This document shows, piece by piece, positions 3,720-56,775 of a DNA stretch of 64,000 bases. The first letter of the stretch is position 1. Every line of letters starts with the position of its first letter. Position numbers and translations under genes: made by a program. The notes under the pieces were generated by a model, which was given only the letters and a program-made list of their open reading frames with translations, did no database searches and was not told the DNA's origin. The stretch spans positions 11,033 through 75,032 of the forward strand of contig JBOHUC010000098.1 of NCBI GenBank assembly GCA_050733935.1, in the 5' to 3' direction. Source of the stretch: Candidatus Eiseniibacteriota bacterium (GTDB lineage Bacteria > Eisenbacteria > RBG-16-71-46 > DASYSL01).

Positions 3720-3749
3720 TTGCACTGCACACATGGCCCCCGTTATAAT
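3720..3749 (+). promoter_or_regulatory. Sigma70-like promoter TTGCAC-N18-TATAAT directly abutting the higB start, implying a leaderless or near-leaderless transcript
   Basis: The -35 (3720-3725) and -10 (3744-3749) hexamers are read directly. The -10 hexamer lies inside the first codons of the longest higB ORF, so the true start must be downstream (GTG at 3757). Confidence 0.35.
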
Positions 3750-3756
3750 GGGGTCC

Positions 3757-4050
3757 GTGATACGCTCGTTCGCCGATCGCGCGACGGAAGATCTGTTCAA
3801 TGGTGTATCCAGCGGTCGAGCCAGGCGGGCGTTACCGGTTGGGCTCTGGCCCATCGCCAGACGAAAACTGGACCAGCTGAATCGCGTGCGGGAACTCTCC
3901 GACCTGGCAACTCCGCCGGGAAACCGGCTCGAGGCACTGCAGCGAGATCGGAAGGGCCAACACTGTATCCGCATCAACGATCAGTATCGGATCTGCTTTC
4001 GCTGGGAGGACGGCTATGCCGACGAGGTCGAAGTCGCTGACTACCACTAG
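3757..4050 (+). CDS. higB: HigB toxin (RelE/ParE superfamily, 'plasmid maintenance system killer')
   Basis: N-terminus 'VIRSFADRATEDLF' and C-terminus 'GNRLEALQRDRKGQHCIRINDQYRICFRWEDGYADEVEVADYH' match the HigB family. GTG at 3757 is preferred over ATG at 3733 because of the promoter position. Confidence 0.75.
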   Translation: MIRSFADRATEDLFNGVSSGRARRALPVGLWPIARRKLDQLNRVRELSDLATPPGNRLEALQRDRKGQHCIRINDQYRICFRWEDGYADEVEVADYH

Positions 4051-4078
4051 CCATCGTTCCCGCGCGCGCACGCCGCTG

Positions 4079-4393
4079 GTGGAGCGCCGCCTACCGACGC
4101 GTCGTCCCCCGACTCACCCCGGGGAAATGCTGTTGGAGGAGTTTCTGAAGCCGCTTGGGATCTCTCAGTCCGCGTTCGCGATCCGGTTGGGAGTGTCGTT
4201 CCCCCGGCTGAATGAGGTTGTTCGAGGGAAGCGCGGTGTAACGCCCGATACGGCATTGCGTCTAGCCCAGGTTACGGGGATGAGCGCTGATTTTTGGCTC
4301 GGGCTCCAGCAGGACTGGGACCTCTGGCATGCGGCGCGCTCGCGCGCGGCGGAAGAGATCGCGAGTCTCAAGCCAATCCGGAAAGCAGGCTGA
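4079..4393 (+). CDS. higA: HigA antitoxin (XRE-family HTH)
   Basis: 'HPGEMLLEEFLKPLGISQSAFAIRLGVSFPRLNEVVRGKRGVTPDTALRLAQVTGMSADFWLGLQ' is the HigA signature. The start is uncertain: GTG at 4079, or ATG at 4016 overlapping higB by 35 nt. Confidence 0.7.
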   Translation: MERRLPTRRPPTHPGEMLLEEFLKPLGISQSAFAIRLGVSFPRLNEVVRGKRGVTPDTALRLAQVTGMSADFWLGLQQDWDLWHAARSRAAEEIASLKPIRKAG

Positions 4394-35596: not shown

Positions 35597-35705
35597 CCTC
35601 TGCCTCCTGCGGAGTAAGGGAAGCGGGGTCGGAATCGGTACTCGGACCCTACGGTAACGCTCGCCGGGGACCGTGTCTCGCGCGAAACGCGGTTTGCCGG
35701 GTTCC

Positions 35706-35745
35706 GCGTCCGATCGCGTCCGATCGCGTCCGATCGCGTCCGATT
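35706..35745. repeat. Four tandem copies of a 10-bp unit GCGTCCGATC (last copy GCGTCCGATT) in the divergent ogt/tatD promoter region
   Basis: Read directly from the sequence. Confidence 0.9.
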
Positions 35746-40072: not shown

Positions 40073-41386
40073 ATGGCGCGCACCCTGAGACGAAGCCGCG
40101 GACGGAACTCGACCGCGCTCGTCCTTTTCCTCGCCGTCGTCGCGATCCTCACGTTCGCCGGTGGAGTCGCCGTGCTGCACGGGCGCTCCGAGGAGGGTCT
40201 GATCCTGCGCGCGCGCGTGGGACTTCCCGTCGATCGCGTCGCGCTGACCCGCACGATCGGAAAGATCGCCCACCGCACGTTCAGCGAATTCGGTGTTCCG
40301 CTCGGGGCCCAGGTGGCGAAGGATCGCCGGGGCAAACAGGTGGACGCGCTCGACCCGCCGCGCTCTCTCTATGCAGGGACGACCGCGAATGCCTCGGGTC
40401 GCGGGGAGAAGCGCGAGGCCGGCTGGGTCGTGGACGGTAAGGGGTCGCGCGGTCCTGCACGACCGCCGATCGTCTGGACCGCCTACCTCCCCGGCCGGGC
40501 CTCGACTCTTCAGCTCAACGCCCGAATGAGCGAGAACCTGCGAGCGAAAGGGGCGGCAGTGCTCGACGCGTGGGAGGACACGCTCGCGACCGCAGGCTCC
40601 CAGGTGCACCTCGTGCTCGGCGCAGGAAACATCGCGACCCACGAGATCCGGCTCGAGCGGCGCACCGATGCGGTGGGGGCACGTGGCTACGAATCCGCGC
40701 GGCTAATGCTGGTCGTGGATGCGTTCGCGTCTCCCGGGGCGGACACCCTCGGCGCGTCGTTCCTGAACCTCGACGTGCCGCTCACGGTCGCCGTCCTCCC
40801 GCAGTCGAAGTCGACCAAGGCCTGGGGCGAGCGCTTGAAGCGCGCCGGACACGAAGTGCTGCTCCAGATCCCGATGGAGCCGCTCAATTATCCGCAGCGC
40901 GATCCGGGGCCCGGTGCGGTACTCGTCGACATGCCTTCGGGACAGATTCAGCGCCTCGTCAAACGGCACCTGTCCGAGGTGTCGCCCGCTACGGGGGCCA
41001 CGAGCTACATGGGGGCGATGGCGCTCTCCGACGTGGCCGCGATGACGGCCGTCATGAACGAGCTCAAGCGGGCAGAAGTCTATTACCTGGATGCGCGCAC
41101 GATTCCCGGCTCGATCGCGGCCGAGCGCGCGGCGCAGGAAGGCGTGACGTGCTTCCGGGTGGACCAGCGACTCGAAACTCCAGGGAAATACGAAACGCAG
41201 GTGAAGATGCTCGGGAAGCAACTCGAGGCGGCCGTGGACCTCGCGCGGCGGCGCGGTTACGCGATCGTTCTCGTCCACCCCGACAAACCGTCGCTCGCGG
41301 TCCTCAGGCGCGACGTGCCGAAGCTCCTTCGCTCCGGCGTGCGCTTCGAGAGGCTTTCGAGCCTACTCAAGCCGCAGGCCCTTTGA
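40073..41386 (+). CDS. Divergent polysaccharide deacetylase family protein (YibQ-like)
   Basis: N-terminal TM, then 'LMLVVDAFASPG...LDVPLTVAVLP...AGHEVLLQIPMEP...YMGAMALSDVAAM...YLDART'. Confidence 0.75.
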   Translation: MARTLRRSRGRNSTALVLFLAVVAILTFAGGVAVLHGRSEEGLILRARVGLPVDRVALTRTIGKIAHRTFSEFGVPLGAQVAKDRRGKQVDALDPPRSLYAGTTANASGRGEKREAGWVVDGKGSRGPARPPIVWTAYLPGRASTLQLNARMSENLRAKGAAVLDAWEDTLATAGSQVHLVLGAGNIATHEIRLERRTDAVGARGYESARLMLVVDAFASPGADTLGASFLNLDVPLTVAVLPQSKSTKAWGERLKRAGHEVLLQIPMEPLNYPQRDPGPGAVLVDMPSGQIQRLVKRHLSEVSPATGATSYMGAMALSDVAAMTAVMNELKRAEVYYLDARTIPGSIAAERAAQEGVTCFRVDQRLETPGKYETQVKMLGKQLEAAVDLARRRGYAIVLVHPDKPSLAVLRRDVPKLLRSGVRFERLSSLLKPQAL

Positions 41387-41403: not shown

Positions 41404-41766
41404 GTGTACGAACAACTCGCTGGACCGCTCCTCTCGACCCGCGCCTTCCTGCGTCGGGTCGGCCGGCACTGGAGTGTTGCGATCGGCGTCCTCGCCGTCT
41501 CCGAGCTCGCCGGCGTTCTCGGCTTTCACTTCCTGGGCGGAGAGTCGTGGATCGACGGGTTCCTCGACTCGTCCATGCTCCTCGGCGGCATGGGTCTCGT
41601 CGGAGACATCCGATCGCCGAGTGGCAAACTCTTCGCGTCCTTCTTTGCGCTCTATGCGGGAATCGTGTTCCTCGGCGCCGGAGCCCTCTTCATCGCACCG
41701 TTCATCCATCGCGTGCTCCACATCCTCCATCTGGACGAGGAGCGTCGCGGGCGTTCGAGCCGCTAG
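41404..41766 (+). CDS. Small hypothetical membrane protein
   Basis: GTG start. Three hydrophobic helices. Confidence 0.35.
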   Translation: MYEQLAGPLLSTRAFLRRVGRHWSVAIGVLAVSELAGVLGFHFLGGESWIDGFLDSSMLLGGMGLVGDIRSPSGKLFASFFALYAGIVFLGAGALFIAPFIHRVLHILHLDEERRGRSSR

Positions 41767-42254
41767 GTTCGGGATGCGATCCAGCCCGCGAGAACGAGAA
41801 TCGTGCCCATGAGGAGCGTCCCTCCGACCAGGATCCAGCCCGCACGCGGGTGATCCGGCGAGCACACGCCGCGCCCCGCCGCGGGACCAAGCCCGAACAC
41901 AAGAAGCGACCACGGCATCATCCAGGCGGTCGACATTCCGGATTCGGACCATGCGCCCGGAGCGGAGAGACCGGCCCACGCGAGCAGGAGTCCTGCGAGG
42001 AGCGCGCCCGAGGTGTACACGCTCCAGCGCGGATAACGCGTCCGCGGGGCGAGCCACCACGCCATCGCGAGCGTGCCGAGCCCGAAAGCTGCGGCCGCCA
42101 GGAGCGCACCTTCGCGTGTCGTCTTTCCAGTTGCATGACCAGCGATCGCCGCGGCCATCGTGGCTGCGAGCAGGATGAGGGCGCCGAGCGCGGCGCCGCG
42201 CGCAGTTCGCGGCGAACGTGGATGCCGTTCGATTCCCGGGTTTCCGGCGTTCAT
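41763..42254 (-). CDS. Hypothetical integral membrane protein
   Basis: 163 aa, 4-5 TM segments. Last gene of a three-gene minus-strand operon. Confidence 0.5.
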   Translation of the reverse strand: MNAGNPGIERHPRSPRTARGAALGALILLAATMAAAIAGHATGKTTREGALLAAAAFGLGTLAMAWWLAPRTRYPRWSVYTSGALLAGLLLAWAGLSAPGAWSESGMSTAWMMPWSLLVFGLGPAAGRGVCSPDHPRAGWILVGGTLLMGTILVLAGWIASRT

Positions 42255-42272: not shown

Positions 42273-42473
42273 TCAGCGCTCTGCATCTTCTTCGAACACT
42301 TCCTCGATTCGCTTCCCGAACAGCCGCGCGATCCGAAACGCGAGCGGCAAGCTCGGGTCGTACTTTTCGGTCTCGATCGCGTTCACGGTCTGGCGTGACA
42401 CGCGGAGCCGGCTGGCCAAGTCTCCTTGAGACCACTCGCGCGCGGCCCGCAGCGAGCGAAGGTGGTTCCTCAT
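42273..42473 (-). CDS. XRE-family HTH transcriptional regulator (YozG-like)
   Basis: 'LRAAREWSQGDLASRLRVSRQTVNAIETEKYDPSLPLAFRIARLFGKRIEEVF'. Confidence 0.75.
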   Translation of the reverse strand: MRNHLRSLRAAREWSQGDLASRLRVSRQTVNAIETEKYDPSLPLAFRIARLFGKRIEEVFEEDAER

Positions 42474-42483
42474 CGCCGCCGCG

Positions 42484-42879
42484 TCACCGGTAACGTCGGT
42501 GGCTGATCAGGAGCCCGATCGCCCACAGCCCGCACATCACCGGCCACACGATCGTGCCCCACTCGATGTCCGGAAGCCCCGCGCCGACCAGGAACCCGTA
42601 GCCGGTCGCGAGAATCCCCGTGCCGCCGAAGCTGAACGCGAGCGCCTCGAGATGCATGCGCTGCTGGAGCTCGTCGAGGCGCCGGATGGAGCTGAACATT
42701 CCGAGGATCAAGGCGGCCGAAGCGGCGCCTTGAACGAGGGCGACCGCAATCCGTCCCGGTGATTCCTTGGGCATCGTCTTTCCGAGAAAGGCGCCGCCGA
42801 GGATGATCGCGGCGATGACGAGCGCGAACGCCAGGAACCGCGGGTCTTCGCAGGACCAGATACTGCGCTTTTCGTTCAT
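42484..42879 (-). CDS. Hypothetical membrane protein (partner of the YozG-like regulator)
   Basis: 131 aa, 4 TM. Sits 10 nt upstream of the XRE gene. Confidence 0.5.
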   Translation of the reverse strand: MNEKRSIWSCEDPRFLAFALVIAAIILGGAFLGKTMPKESPGRIAVALVQGAASAALILGMFSSIRRLDELQQRMHLEALAFSFGGTGILATGYGFLVGAGLPDIEWGTIVWPVMCGLWAIGLLISHRRYR

Positions 42880-42946
42880 GCCCGGGACTGTAAAGGATCC
42901 TTGTCAGGCTGTCAAGCGTGCTTTACATGGTCGGCGGGCTCGGCGC

Positions 42947-43090
42947 AACTTGCCCCGGGGCAACCTGCTGCGCAGCAACCTGGGGGTCCGCCAACTTGCC
43001 GCAGGGCAACCTGCTGCGCAAGCAACCTGGGGGTCCCCCAACTTGCCCCGGGGCAACCTGCCGTGCGGCAACCTGCCCGTGGAGCAACCC
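42947..43090. repeat. Three imperfect tandem copies of a roughly 46-bp unit, with 'GCAACCTG' occurring six times, in the divergent intergenic region upstream of lepB
   Basis: Units start at 42947, 42992 and 43039 (CAACTTGCC...GGCAACCTGCTGCGCA(A)GCAACCTGGGGGTCC). Read directly from the sequence. Confidence 0.85.
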
Positions 43091-43106
43091 TGCTATCCTG
43101 CTTTCC

Positions 43107-43715
43107 GTGAACCCCACCGCGAGCCGCGCCCGGAAGCGAATACTCGAACTCCTCGTGATCGGAGCCGCCGTGCTCCTTCAGTTCGCGGCGCGCTCGTCGC
43201 TCGCGGATCACTACATCGTTCCCACGGGCTCGATGGAGCAGACGATCCACCCTGGCGACCGCATCCTGGTCGACAAGAGGGCCTACGGCCTGCGGGTGCC
43301 CTTCACGCGACTCGAGCTCGTTCCGGGCGCCCGTCCTGCGCGGGGCGAGATCGCGGTGTTCGATTCCCCGGAGAATGGTATCCGGCTCATCAAGCGCGTG
43401 GTCGCGATCTCCGGCGACGTGGTCGAAGTGCGAAAGGGCCGGGTGATCGTGAACGGCAAGCCGCTCGCGCTCCCTCCCGACGGACAGCACGAGCGCTTCG
43501 GCGCGCGCACCTCGGACCTCGAGCTCTGCTTCGGCGGTGGACCCGACATCGGACCGGTGCGGGTGCCCGACGGCTCGGTGCTCCTCCTCGGAGATGCGCG
43601 TGGGAACAGCCGCGATGGCCGCACGTTCGGCTTCGTCCGGGAGGACCGGCTCTACGCGCGTGCGATCTCGGTCTTCTTCCGAACTGACCGGGGATTCGTC
43701 TGGCAGACGCTGTGA
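43107..43715 (+). CDS. lepB: Signal peptidase I
   Basis: TM 'ILELLVIGAAVLLQFAA', catalytic Ser box 'PTGSME', Lys box 'LIKRVVA', 'GDARGNSRDGR'. Start GTG at 43107, downstream of the repeats. Confidence 0.8.
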   Translation: MNPTASRARKRILELLVIGAAVLLQFAARSSLADHYIVPTGSMEQTIHPGDRILVDKRAYGLRVPFTRLELVPGARPARGEIAVFDSPENGIRLIKRVVAISGDVVEVRKGRVIVNGKPLALPPDGQHERFGARTSDLELCFGGGPDIGPVRVPDGSVLLLGDARGNSRDGRTFGFVREDRLYARAISVFFRTDRGFVWQTL

Positions 43716-44443
43716 CCGCCGACCGCGCCGACCGCGCCGACCGCGCGCGTCGCGTGGCCGGCATCATCGGCGGCATCGGCCCCGAATCGACGCTCGACTA
43801 CTACCGCCAGATCATCGACCGCTACCGCGCTCGCGCGGGGAACGGCCGATACCCCCACGTCCTCATCAACAGCATCGACGCCGAGACCGTCGTCCCGCTC
43901 GTCCTGGCCGGGGAGCTGCCGCGGCTTGCCGAAATCCTGTCGGCCGAGGTCGAGCGGCTCGCGTCCGCCGGGGCGACGTTCGCCCTCCTCGCCGCGAACA
44001 CGCCGCATATCGTGTTCGATGACCTGAAGGCGCGCTCGCGGATCCCGCTCTTGAGCATCGTCGAGGCAACCGCGGACGCCGCGCGGGCGCGCGGACTCAC
44101 GAGGCCCGCGCTCCTCGGCACGCGCCCGACGATGCAGGGGCGCTTCTTCCCGGAAGTGTTCCGGAAGGCGAGCCTCGATCTCGTGGTTCCGCGCCCCGAC
44201 GAGCAGGAGGTGGTGCACGAGATCTACATGGTGGAGCTGTTCCGCGGCGTGTTCCGGCCAGAGTCGCGCGAGCGGATTTGTAACGTGATGGATCGGCTCG
44301 CAGCCGAAGAGAGAGCCGACAGCGTCATTCTGGGCGGCACCGAGCTTCCGCTCCTCATGCGTGAAGTCGAACACCGGACGCCGCCGTTCCTCGACACGAC
44401 GAAAATCCACGTCGAGCGGATCGTGGACGAGCTTTTGTCCTGA
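43712..44443 (+). CDS. Aspartate/glutamate racemase family protein
   Basis: 'IIGGIGPESTLDYY', 'LLAANTPH', 'ILGGTELPLL'. The 5' end contains a 9-bp x3 repeat encoding 'ADRADRADRA'. Confidence 0.8.
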   Translation: MTADRADRADRARRVAGIIGGIGPESTLDYYRQIIDRYRARAGNGRYPHVLINSIDAETVVPLVLAGELPRLAEILSAEVERLASAGATFALLAANTPHIVFDDLKARSRIPLLSIVEATADAARARGLTRPALLGTRPTMQGRFFPEVFRKASLDLVVPRPDEQEVVHEIYMVELFRGVFRPESRERICNVMDRLAAEERADSVILGGTELPLLMREVEHRTPPFLDTTKIHVERIVDELLS

Positions 44444-56307: not shown

Positions 56308-56775
56308 TTACTCGTCCGCCGTCATCTTGCGGGTCGTGGCAACCGAACCGCGAGCGGTGGCGACTGAACCGCGCGCCGTGGCGACCGAGCCGCGAGCGGT
56401 GGCAACCGAACCGCGCGCCGTGGCAACCGAACCGCGCGCCGTAGCAACGGAACCGCGGGCGGTAGCGACGGAACCGCGCGAGGTCGCGAGCGTGCCGCGG
56501 GGGCTGGTCAGCGTTCCGCGAGGCGTGGCAGCCGAACCGCGGGGGCTGGTCAGCGTTCCGCGAGGGGTTGCGGCCGAACCGCGAGGGCTGGTCAGCGTGC
56601 CGCGAGGCGTAGCCGCCGAACCGCGAGGGCTGGTCAGCGTACCGCGAGGCGTGGCAGCCGAACCGCGCGGGGTGGCAACCGAACCGCGAGCGGTGGAGAC
56701 GTTCGACTTGGACTCTGTCTTCTTCGCCGGAGCCTCGATTCTCGAGGCGACTTTGGGTGTCAGCTTCTTCGACAT
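56308..56775 (-). CDS. Intrinsically disordered repeat protein: Lys-rich N-terminus, then 4x 14-aa 'GSAATPRGTLTSPR' and 7x 7-aa 'GSVATAR' repeats
   Basis: Strong Shine-Dalgarno-like AAGAGGAGG 8 nt upstream of ATG on the minus strand, and its own terminator. The mirror plus-strand ORF lacks a Shine-Dalgarno-like sequence. Composition is R/S/T/A/G/P only after residue 30. Confidence 0.65.
   Translation of the reverse strand: MSKKLTPKVASRIEAPAKKTESKSNVSTARGSVATPRGSAATPRGTLTSPRGSAATPRGTLTSPRGSAATPRGTLTSPRGSAATPRGTLTSPRGTLATSRGSVATARGSVATARGSVATARGSVATARGSVATARGSVATARGSVATTRKMTADE
56327..56706. repeat. About 18 tandem copies of a 21-bp unit (consensus GTGGCAACCGAACCGCGAGCG, alternating with CTGGTCAGCGTTCCGCGAGGC) inside the repeat-protein gene
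   Basis: Read directly from the sequence. Not CRISPR-like: there are no unique spacers and the unit is in-frame coding. Confidence 0.85.

Follow-up and report, generated by a model that had tools for sequence, protein, structure and literature searches.

An array of ten head-to-tail (G/C)CAACYTG cores, 15 or 16 bp apart on the plus strand (42945-43092), precedes the signal peptidase I gene lepB in the stretch of Eiseniibacteriota DNA analysed here, called the window in the following (64 kb in total, to which all positions refer unless stated otherwise). In structure, this non-coding array is a minisatellite, i.e. an intergenic tandem repeat, possibly cis-regulatory. We tentatively read its cores as docking sites for a sequence-specific DNA-binding protein other than the adjacent XRE regulator, which would act at a lepB promoter devoid of a -35 element. 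This reading and that of a function-less minisatellite are nearly even, the docking array being slightly favoured.

Organization of the array

As the initial annotation had placed it, the array occupies the space between divergent genes, a gap of 227 bp from the ATG of a minus-strand membrane/XRE/membrane operon (42879) to the GTG of the plus-strand lepB (43107). TRF returns a single array (42946-43075; score 209 for a period of 47, with 2.8 copies and 88% matches), stronger than any other non-coding repeat of the 64-kb window, and the three tandem repeats of about 46 bp first described are recovered as plus-strand units of 46 bp (42945-42990), 47 bp (42991-43037) and 46 bp (43038-43083). These are non-coding, head-to-tail copies of a unit in the 10-100-bp range that defines minisatellites.

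The cores start at 42945, 42960, 42975, 42991, 43006, 43022, 43038, 43053, 43068 and 43084, the last one being a degenerate GCAACCCTG. Six of them are exact copies of GCAACCTG (42960, 42975, 43006, 43022, 43053 and 43068). This octamer occurs once elsewhere in the 64 kb, and its total of seven, compared with 1.3 expected by chance for the whole window, was reached in none of 100 shuffles. Relaxing the core to CAACYTG brings in three further copies, at 42946, 42992 and 43039, within the third core of each unit, (G/C)CAACTTG at 42945, 42991 and 43038. The six cores counted initially thus stand as exact octamers, but the total rises to ten with these three and the degenerate one. The spacing was also revised: instead of two cores per unit, about 20 bp or two helical turns apart, there are three, at intervals of 15 or 16 bp corresponding to ~1.5 turns. 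Every second core is then 31 bp away, i.e. ~3 turns, so that alternate cores lie on one helical face.

Two tiers can be distinguished in this structure, a module of 15-16 bp, in which a GC-rich spacer comes after an invariant, directional core, and a triplet A-B-C of modules with unrelated spacers. Unit 1 is composed of modules A (CAACTTGCCCCGGG), B (CAACCTGCTGCGCA) and C (CAACCTGGGGGTCCG). In unit 2, module B contains one additional A, and in unit 3 module A is the same as in unit 1, the B and C spacers having diverged with their cores intact. Identities amount to 89% between units 1 and 2, 77% between units 1 and 3 and 74% between units 2 and 3; unit 3 is the decayed edge of the array. The triplet of 46/47 bp was amplified about threefold at a later stage, presumably by slipped-strand or unequal-exchange duplication.

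All nine inter-core segments are palindromes of 14-15 bp of the form YTG-(GC-rich N8/9)-CAA, for example TTGCCCCGGGGCAA, cTGCTGCGCAGCAa and cTGGGGGTCCCCCAa, and neighbouring palindromes are joined by a single C. The first of these three is the perfect 14-bp palindrome of module A (42950-42963), which is found again at 43043-43056 and, in imperfect form, at 42996-43009 and 43058-43071. Inner dyad matches number 28 out of 36, against 15.5 +/- 2.9 in 20,000 shuffles, for copies that are not independent of one another. The pattern TTGCC-N4-GGCAA has three exact matches in the window, all inside the array. G+C content of the array region is 63-68%, and no AT-rich stretch is present there.

Variation between the three units is confined to the non-core columns, 13 out of 26 of which differ, none of the 21 core columns being affected (Fisher p = 1.3e-4; omission of the last spacer gives 2e-3). 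Within the core, positions 2-5, 7 and 8 stay the same in all nine full modules while the A, B and C spacers are unrelated to each other. Such invariant cores next to unrelated spacers are hard to obtain by duplication and neutral drift, and this is our main argument for a function. As a test, the avoidance of cores by mutations is weak since the variable positions are clustered and belong to a single lineage: if they represent 4-6 mutational events, p is estimated at only ~0.03-0.05. Template switching at quasi-palindromes could moreover have directed mutations to the middle of the palindromes. One pair of changes in unit 3 (module B, T>C and A>G) keeps the dyad.

An assembly artefact in repeat number, a concern raised at the outset, is not apparent and the assembly looks sound. 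The longest exact repeat inside the array is 23 nt and no canonical k-mer of at least 25 nt is repeated, so that the array can be resolved by short-read assembly and its collapse is unlikely. The array is identical in GCA_975254425.1; this assembly and a Logan contig (L002, SRR27067778) match the window at 100% identity over 12.2 and 6.7 kb, respectively. Such identity suggests that both derive from the same population as the window, possibly from the same sample, and they therefore bring no independent evidence. Despite the lack of any repeated k-mer of at least 25 nt, the Logan contig terminates within the array, at 42977, which could reflect a coverage drop over GC-rich palindromes or heterogeneity of the array in the population. 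Exact-protein look-ups for strain variants led back to the same population only, and the LepB protein cluster has no further member.

The lepB start and coding capacity of the array

The lepB gene (43107-43715, plus strand) encodes a signal peptidase I of 202 aa (TIGR02227, 125 bits for a cutoff of 47; PF10502). That the repeats are non-coding and that LepB is translated from a GTG just downstream had been proposed from the start, and both the homologues and the NCBI annotation agree with it. An NCBI protein 100% identical to LepB is annotated with 202 aa, which corresponds to GTG 43107. The best 120 homologues listed are mostly of ~190-205 aa, with a few up to 234. Among ten aligned homologues, none starts before residue 64 of the long lepB ORF, equivalent to GTG 43107, the closest one (81%) beginning 7 residues after this position, and none aligns with the part encoded by the repeats (residues ~9-56 of this ORF). 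This ORF is open from 42918, and the gene caller of one assembly took ATG 42927 as the start, giving 262 aa.

Pfam at E <= 10 has no match in five frames of the array and the sixth contains a stop, three in-frame pentapeptides being too short to be detected. No frame persists along the array since modules are of 15 or 16 bp and units of 46 and 47 bp. Given units that are not multiples of 3, the silence of Pfam and the start of LepB homologues at 43107, the array is non-coding.

Downstream, an Asp/Glu racemase gene starts at a GTG which overlaps the stop codon of lepB (GTGA, 43712-43746). The N-terminus of the racemase includes ADRADRADRA, encoded by a 9-nt repeat in 3.3 copies, CGCCGACCG.

The divergent operon and its own operator

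The minus-strand operon encodes, in this order, a 131-aa membrane protein of no known family (42484-42879), a 66-aa XRE/HTH_3 regulator (42273-42473; PF01381, 1.3e-13) and a 163-aa membrane protein, again of no known family (41763-42254). It is preceded by a sigma-70-type promoter (42887-42915, minus strand) with TTGACA (42915-42910), a spacer of 17 bp, TACAGT (42892-42887) and 7 nt before ATG 42879; the promoter scan scores it at 10/12 matches, with 0.0 expected. Its -10 and -35 are covered by two 18-bp inverted repeats, TGTmAAG-N4-CTTkACA (42889-42906 and 42910-42927), with centres 21 bp apart, which form a probable XRE operator (42889-42927) separate from the array.

The 131-aa membrane protein has orthologues (55-60% identity) in operons that also encode an XRE protein of 66-76 aa. 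Orthologous XRE proteins are 73-74% identical, and the central HTH stretch VSRQTVNA as well as most flanking residues are invariant. Upstream of the orthologous operons (L129 and L132), the sole conserved DNA is TGTAAAG-N4-CTTGACA-N2/3-TGACAAG-N4-CTTTACA, a dyad which overlaps a conserved TTGACA-17-TACnnT promoter. The 39-bp dyad is present in three lineages (window 42889-42927; L129 2917-2955; L132 2921-2960) and is unique within the window. The orthologous operons carry a Shine-Dalgarno leader of 36-38 nt, which the window species lacks, its -10 being 7 nt from the ATG.

This dyad is probably the autoregulatory operator of this small XRE family. Its layout is the classical one of Cro/CI-type tandem operators, with a pair of 18-bp inverted repeats placed over -35 and -10 at 21 bp centre to centre. 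The array, on the other hand, differs from such operators, as it does without the conserved half-site and does not accompany the regulator in other lineages: the GCAACYTG array is absent from the orthologous membrane/XRE operons (L129, L132), and the XRE half-site TGTmAAG has no occurrence in the array. The initial annotation regarded the adjacent XRE as a plausible binder of the array. It now appears an unlikely one, because it has a conserved operator of its own where the array is absent and because its half-site is missing from the array. The conserved two-operator site of this widespread small XRE/membrane-protein operon is a solid by-product of the analysis, firmer than the array itself.

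The lepB promoter and leaderless genes

The lepB promoter, as read from the sequence, would consist of an extended -10, TGcTATCCT (43091-43099, plus strand), followed by 7 nt to GTG 43107. At the -35 position (43071-43076) stands ACCTGC, without any TTGACA-like hexamer; core 9 (43068-43075) sits there, and core 10 overlaps the TG of the extended -10. No Shine-Dalgarno sequence precedes GTG 43107. On this inferred promoter layout, the array would be untranscribed, and it extends from a point 30 bp upstream of the minus-strand -35 as far as the TG of TGcTATCCT.

The geometry of a -10 followed by 6-7 nt and a start codon recurs at four other genes: those of the 131-aa membrane protein, a glyoxalase (TAGAGT-7-ATG), a polysaccharide deacetylase (TTGACG-17-TAGGTT-6-ATG) and TatD (TACGAT-6-ATG). 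Judging from this recurrence, this Eiseniibacteriota genome seems to make frequent use of leaderless mRNAs and of sigma-70-like promoters. The evidence of common leaderless transcripts with TTGACA-17-TAnnnT promoters is a firmer by-product than the array; we know of no cultured members of the phylum and of no promoters mapped in it. Operon-first genes at 42879, in the 44929 region (glyoxalase), at 40073, 35784 and 43107 have TAnnnT 6-7 nt before the start and no Shine-Dalgarno, often with TTGAC(A/G) 17 bp further upstream.

Tandem alternative promoters within the array were rejected because the spacings do not fit: judged by eye, they are off by 1 nt for sigma-54 (GG-N10-GC) and by 3-4 nt for ECF-type promoters (AAC-N16/17-CGT). 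Rfam at gathering score has no match in the whole window, and at E <= 1 the segment 42700-43300 gives sub-threshold eukaryotic chance hits only (miRNA, lncRNA and snoRNA models).

Distribution of the array

In the closest relative, GCA_973526205.1 (LepB 81% identical), no repeat is present upstream of lepB; the lepB-racemase-glyoxalase order is kept and the gene upstream differs. Two lepB loci at 63% identity are also without the array. The comparison of repeat copy number with relatives, which had been suggested as a check, thus found the array absent at both levels of identity. In the window species itself, the motif forms no other cluster in the rest of the 64-kb window nor in ~9 kb beyond (~74 kb of this genome), hence no sign of a regulon. 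The module palindromes have no occurrence in the window outside the array, and REP/BIME-type dispersed palindromes were rejected on this ground. A Chi or uptake sequence was likewise discarded, the 8-mer not being over-represented outside the array.

Beyond this genome, no blastn match was obtained in plasmid or phage collections. The A-B-C module pattern has four matches in JGI metagenomes, all unrelated: L126 has the appearance of a coding repeat, L127 consists of four copies of a simple 15-nt unit, and L125 and L128 are arrays of inverted GGTTGCC/GGCAACC heptamers. The last two (L125 1-190, L128 1219-1290) are non-coding and possibly form long hairpins; they belong to a different type sharing the word GCAACC.

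A scan of a genome collection for three cores at 15/16-bp spacing listed at least 120 matches. Those listed are mostly pentapeptide-repeat-type coding DNA, with a few simple 16-bp arrays in unrelated phyla. There is no Eiseniibacteriota record among the matches listed, and the scan therefore says nothing on absence in relatives. In viral contigs, almost all matches to the three-core pattern are of 37 nt, i.e. 15-nt-spaced. Public pattern scans return pentapeptide genes because these have the same core word (GCN-AAC-CTG) and a dominant 15-nt period in common with the array. The array differs from such genes in that its frame is broken by 16-nt intervals, its spacers are palindromic, it gives no Pfam signal and it has no flanking gene of this kind. 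It is, from these data, an orphan, species-specific (lineage-specific) array at a synteny breakpoint with respect to the 81% relative.

Comparison with known repeat arrays

Mycobacterial MIRU have units of 46-100 bp in intergenic regions. The array resembles minisatellites or VNTRs such as these by its head-to-tail intergenic unit of ~46 bp, its lineage specificity, its decayed edge and its origin by slippage or unequal exchange. Unlike MIRU-type VNTRs, it is seen at a single locus and its unit comprises three modules with an invariant core.

Arrays of iteron or centromere type offer a second comparison, the closest one as to how the array would work. The sopC site of F is made of twelve 43-bp repeats, each with an inverted repeat, whereas in R1 parC 11-bp iterons surround the par promoter and the array is also an operator. 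The lepB array shares with them phased sites, a palindrome-bearing tandem unit and a promoter-proximal position, but differs by its 15.5-bp period, its chromosomal housekeeping setting, its GC-richness and the lack of plasmid or phage similarity. Replication iterons are direct repeats of 17-22 bp phased at whole helical turns, with an adjoining AT-rich unwinding element and DnaA boxes. This type was rejected for an array with a period of 15-16 bp, 63-68% G+C and no AT-rich stretch, whose neighbours are lepB, the Asp/Glu racemase and glyoxalase genes and the membrane/XRE/membrane operon, with no Rep, Par, integrase or transposase. Transposon-end or arm-type sites were rejected as well, as neither an inverted partner array nor a recombinase is found nearby.

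Docking sites or minisatellite

The docking of a protein on the cores, whose probability we place somewhat below even, is favoured by the absence of variation in the cores (0/21 against 13/26 in the spacers), the regular 15/16-bp phasing and the promoter-proximal position. Against it stand the lack of conservation, the lack of a second site in ~74 kb, and the palindromic spacers, which a protein binding direct repeats would not need; no candidate binder is encoded nearby. A substantial chance, also below even, goes to a young minisatellite that is function-less or acts incidentally. A GC-rich, palindrome-rich segment in a rearrangement gap would have been expanded by slippage or unequal exchange, template switching at quasi-palindromes would keep the spacer dyads, and lepB would be affected only by displacement of upstream promoter DNA. 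Such an origin is consistent with an array that is species-specific and located at the breakpoint, with units 74-89% identical among which the outermost has decayed most, a typical trait of tandem arrays, and with its orphan status in ~74 kb of the genome, in plasmids, in phages and in JGI metagenomes. Simple 16-bp arrays containing CAACYTG exist in unrelated phyla (L005, L069 and L090 among the matches listed), and the dyad-preserving pair of changes in unit 3 (T>C / A>G, module B) fits a single template-switch event. A perfect tandem repeat of 4 x 10 bp also lies upstream of another promoter of this genome; it shows that promoter-region duplication occurs without need of a function, so that the neutral reading stays strong. 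On the other hand, a neutral array should mutate its cores as often as its spacers, at odds with the 0/21 and 13/26 variable columns, and an exact core shared by A, B and C modules with unrelated spacers is unlike the outcome of duplication and drift.

The other explanations carry much less weight. All modules being palindromic, the array could be seen as nine tandem hairpins, either structured RNA within a long 5' UTR of lepB or on the strand antisense to this leader, or hairpins of single-stranded DNA, and its predicted fold is somewhat more stable than that of shuffles (z = -2.3 and -1.9 for the plus and minus strands). A weak plus-strand promoter-like pair, TTGTCA-17-TACATG (42901-42929), would be placed to transcribe it. 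However, the conserved final T is missing from this candidate -10, which the promoter scan did not call, GTG 43107 has no Shine-Dalgarno and a proper -10 only 7 nt upstream, conservation resides in the stem base and linker rather than in the loops, no Rfam family is matched and repeated palindromes trivially yield such z-scores; we consider hairpins very unlikely. Even less credence is given to a coding origin of the array, whether as additional N-terminal residues of LepB or as what decay has left of a pentapeptide-repeat gene. In favour of it, AAC-CTG would be read as Asn-Leu and 15 nt as five residues, the long ORF is open from 42918 with ATG 42927 used by one gene caller, 116 of the 132 motif chains among the matches listed in the genome scan are purely 15-nt-spaced and read xNLxx, and one frame of the array gives NLPRG NLLRS NLGVR. 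Yet the 15/16 alternation and the 46/47-bp units break every frame, Pfam finds nothing at E <= 10, none of ten LepB homologues covers the repeat stretch and palindromic spacers are not typical of coding repeats. Equally improbable is a role of the array as auxiliary or decoy operators for the adjacent XRE, in spite of its proximity and of the form of the modules, YTG-N8/9-CAA, close to the inner XRE dyad TTG-N9-CAA: a complete two-operator site is present over the XRE operon's own promoter in three lineages, orthologous lineages do without the array, and the conserved half-site TGTmAAG is absent from it.

Returning to the docking sites, a multimer or filament of the candidate protein would load on the ten head-to-tail sites every ~1.5 turns and would cover the DNA between the -35 position of lepB and a point 30 bp upstream of the -35 of the XRE operon. 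The bound protein might there replace, or occlude, the missing -35 of the leaderless extended -10 promoter, and binding to the array might in this way set the expression of signal peptidase I, either raising or lowering it. A more elaborate version, in which an operator lattice evolved de novo and the putative protein both replaces the lepB -35 and couples lepB to the divergent XRE operon, seems to us rather unlikely.

If the cores are protein-bound, the array would represent a clean natural multi-site operator, recently made by tandem amplification and controlling an essential secretion enzyme, signal peptidase I. The lattice, if true, would add a new regulator/operator pair from an uncultivated phylum, and would exemplify a regulatory array born by tandem amplification. 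With unbound cores, the array would be one more orphan minisatellite, at most a marker for strain typing.

Other repeats and gene pairs of the genome

The 4 x 10-bp repeat mentioned above, CGCGTCCGAT, is located at 35705-35744 in a divergent intergenic region and ends ~28 bp upstream of the TACGAT-6-ATG of TatD. Repeats are also found within coding sequence: a 155-aa ORF (56308-56775, minus strand) is made over nearly its whole length of ~17 heptads (TPRGSAA / TARGSVA / SPRGTLT), encoded by a tandem repeat of 21 nt x 17 with a higher-order period of 84 nt (56336-56696), and corresponds to a low-complexity protein. Finally, two pairs of a HigB-like toxin and an HTH_3 antitoxin are present, one at L254 7177-7837 (window ~3733-4393) and the other outside the window (L254 14909-15506).
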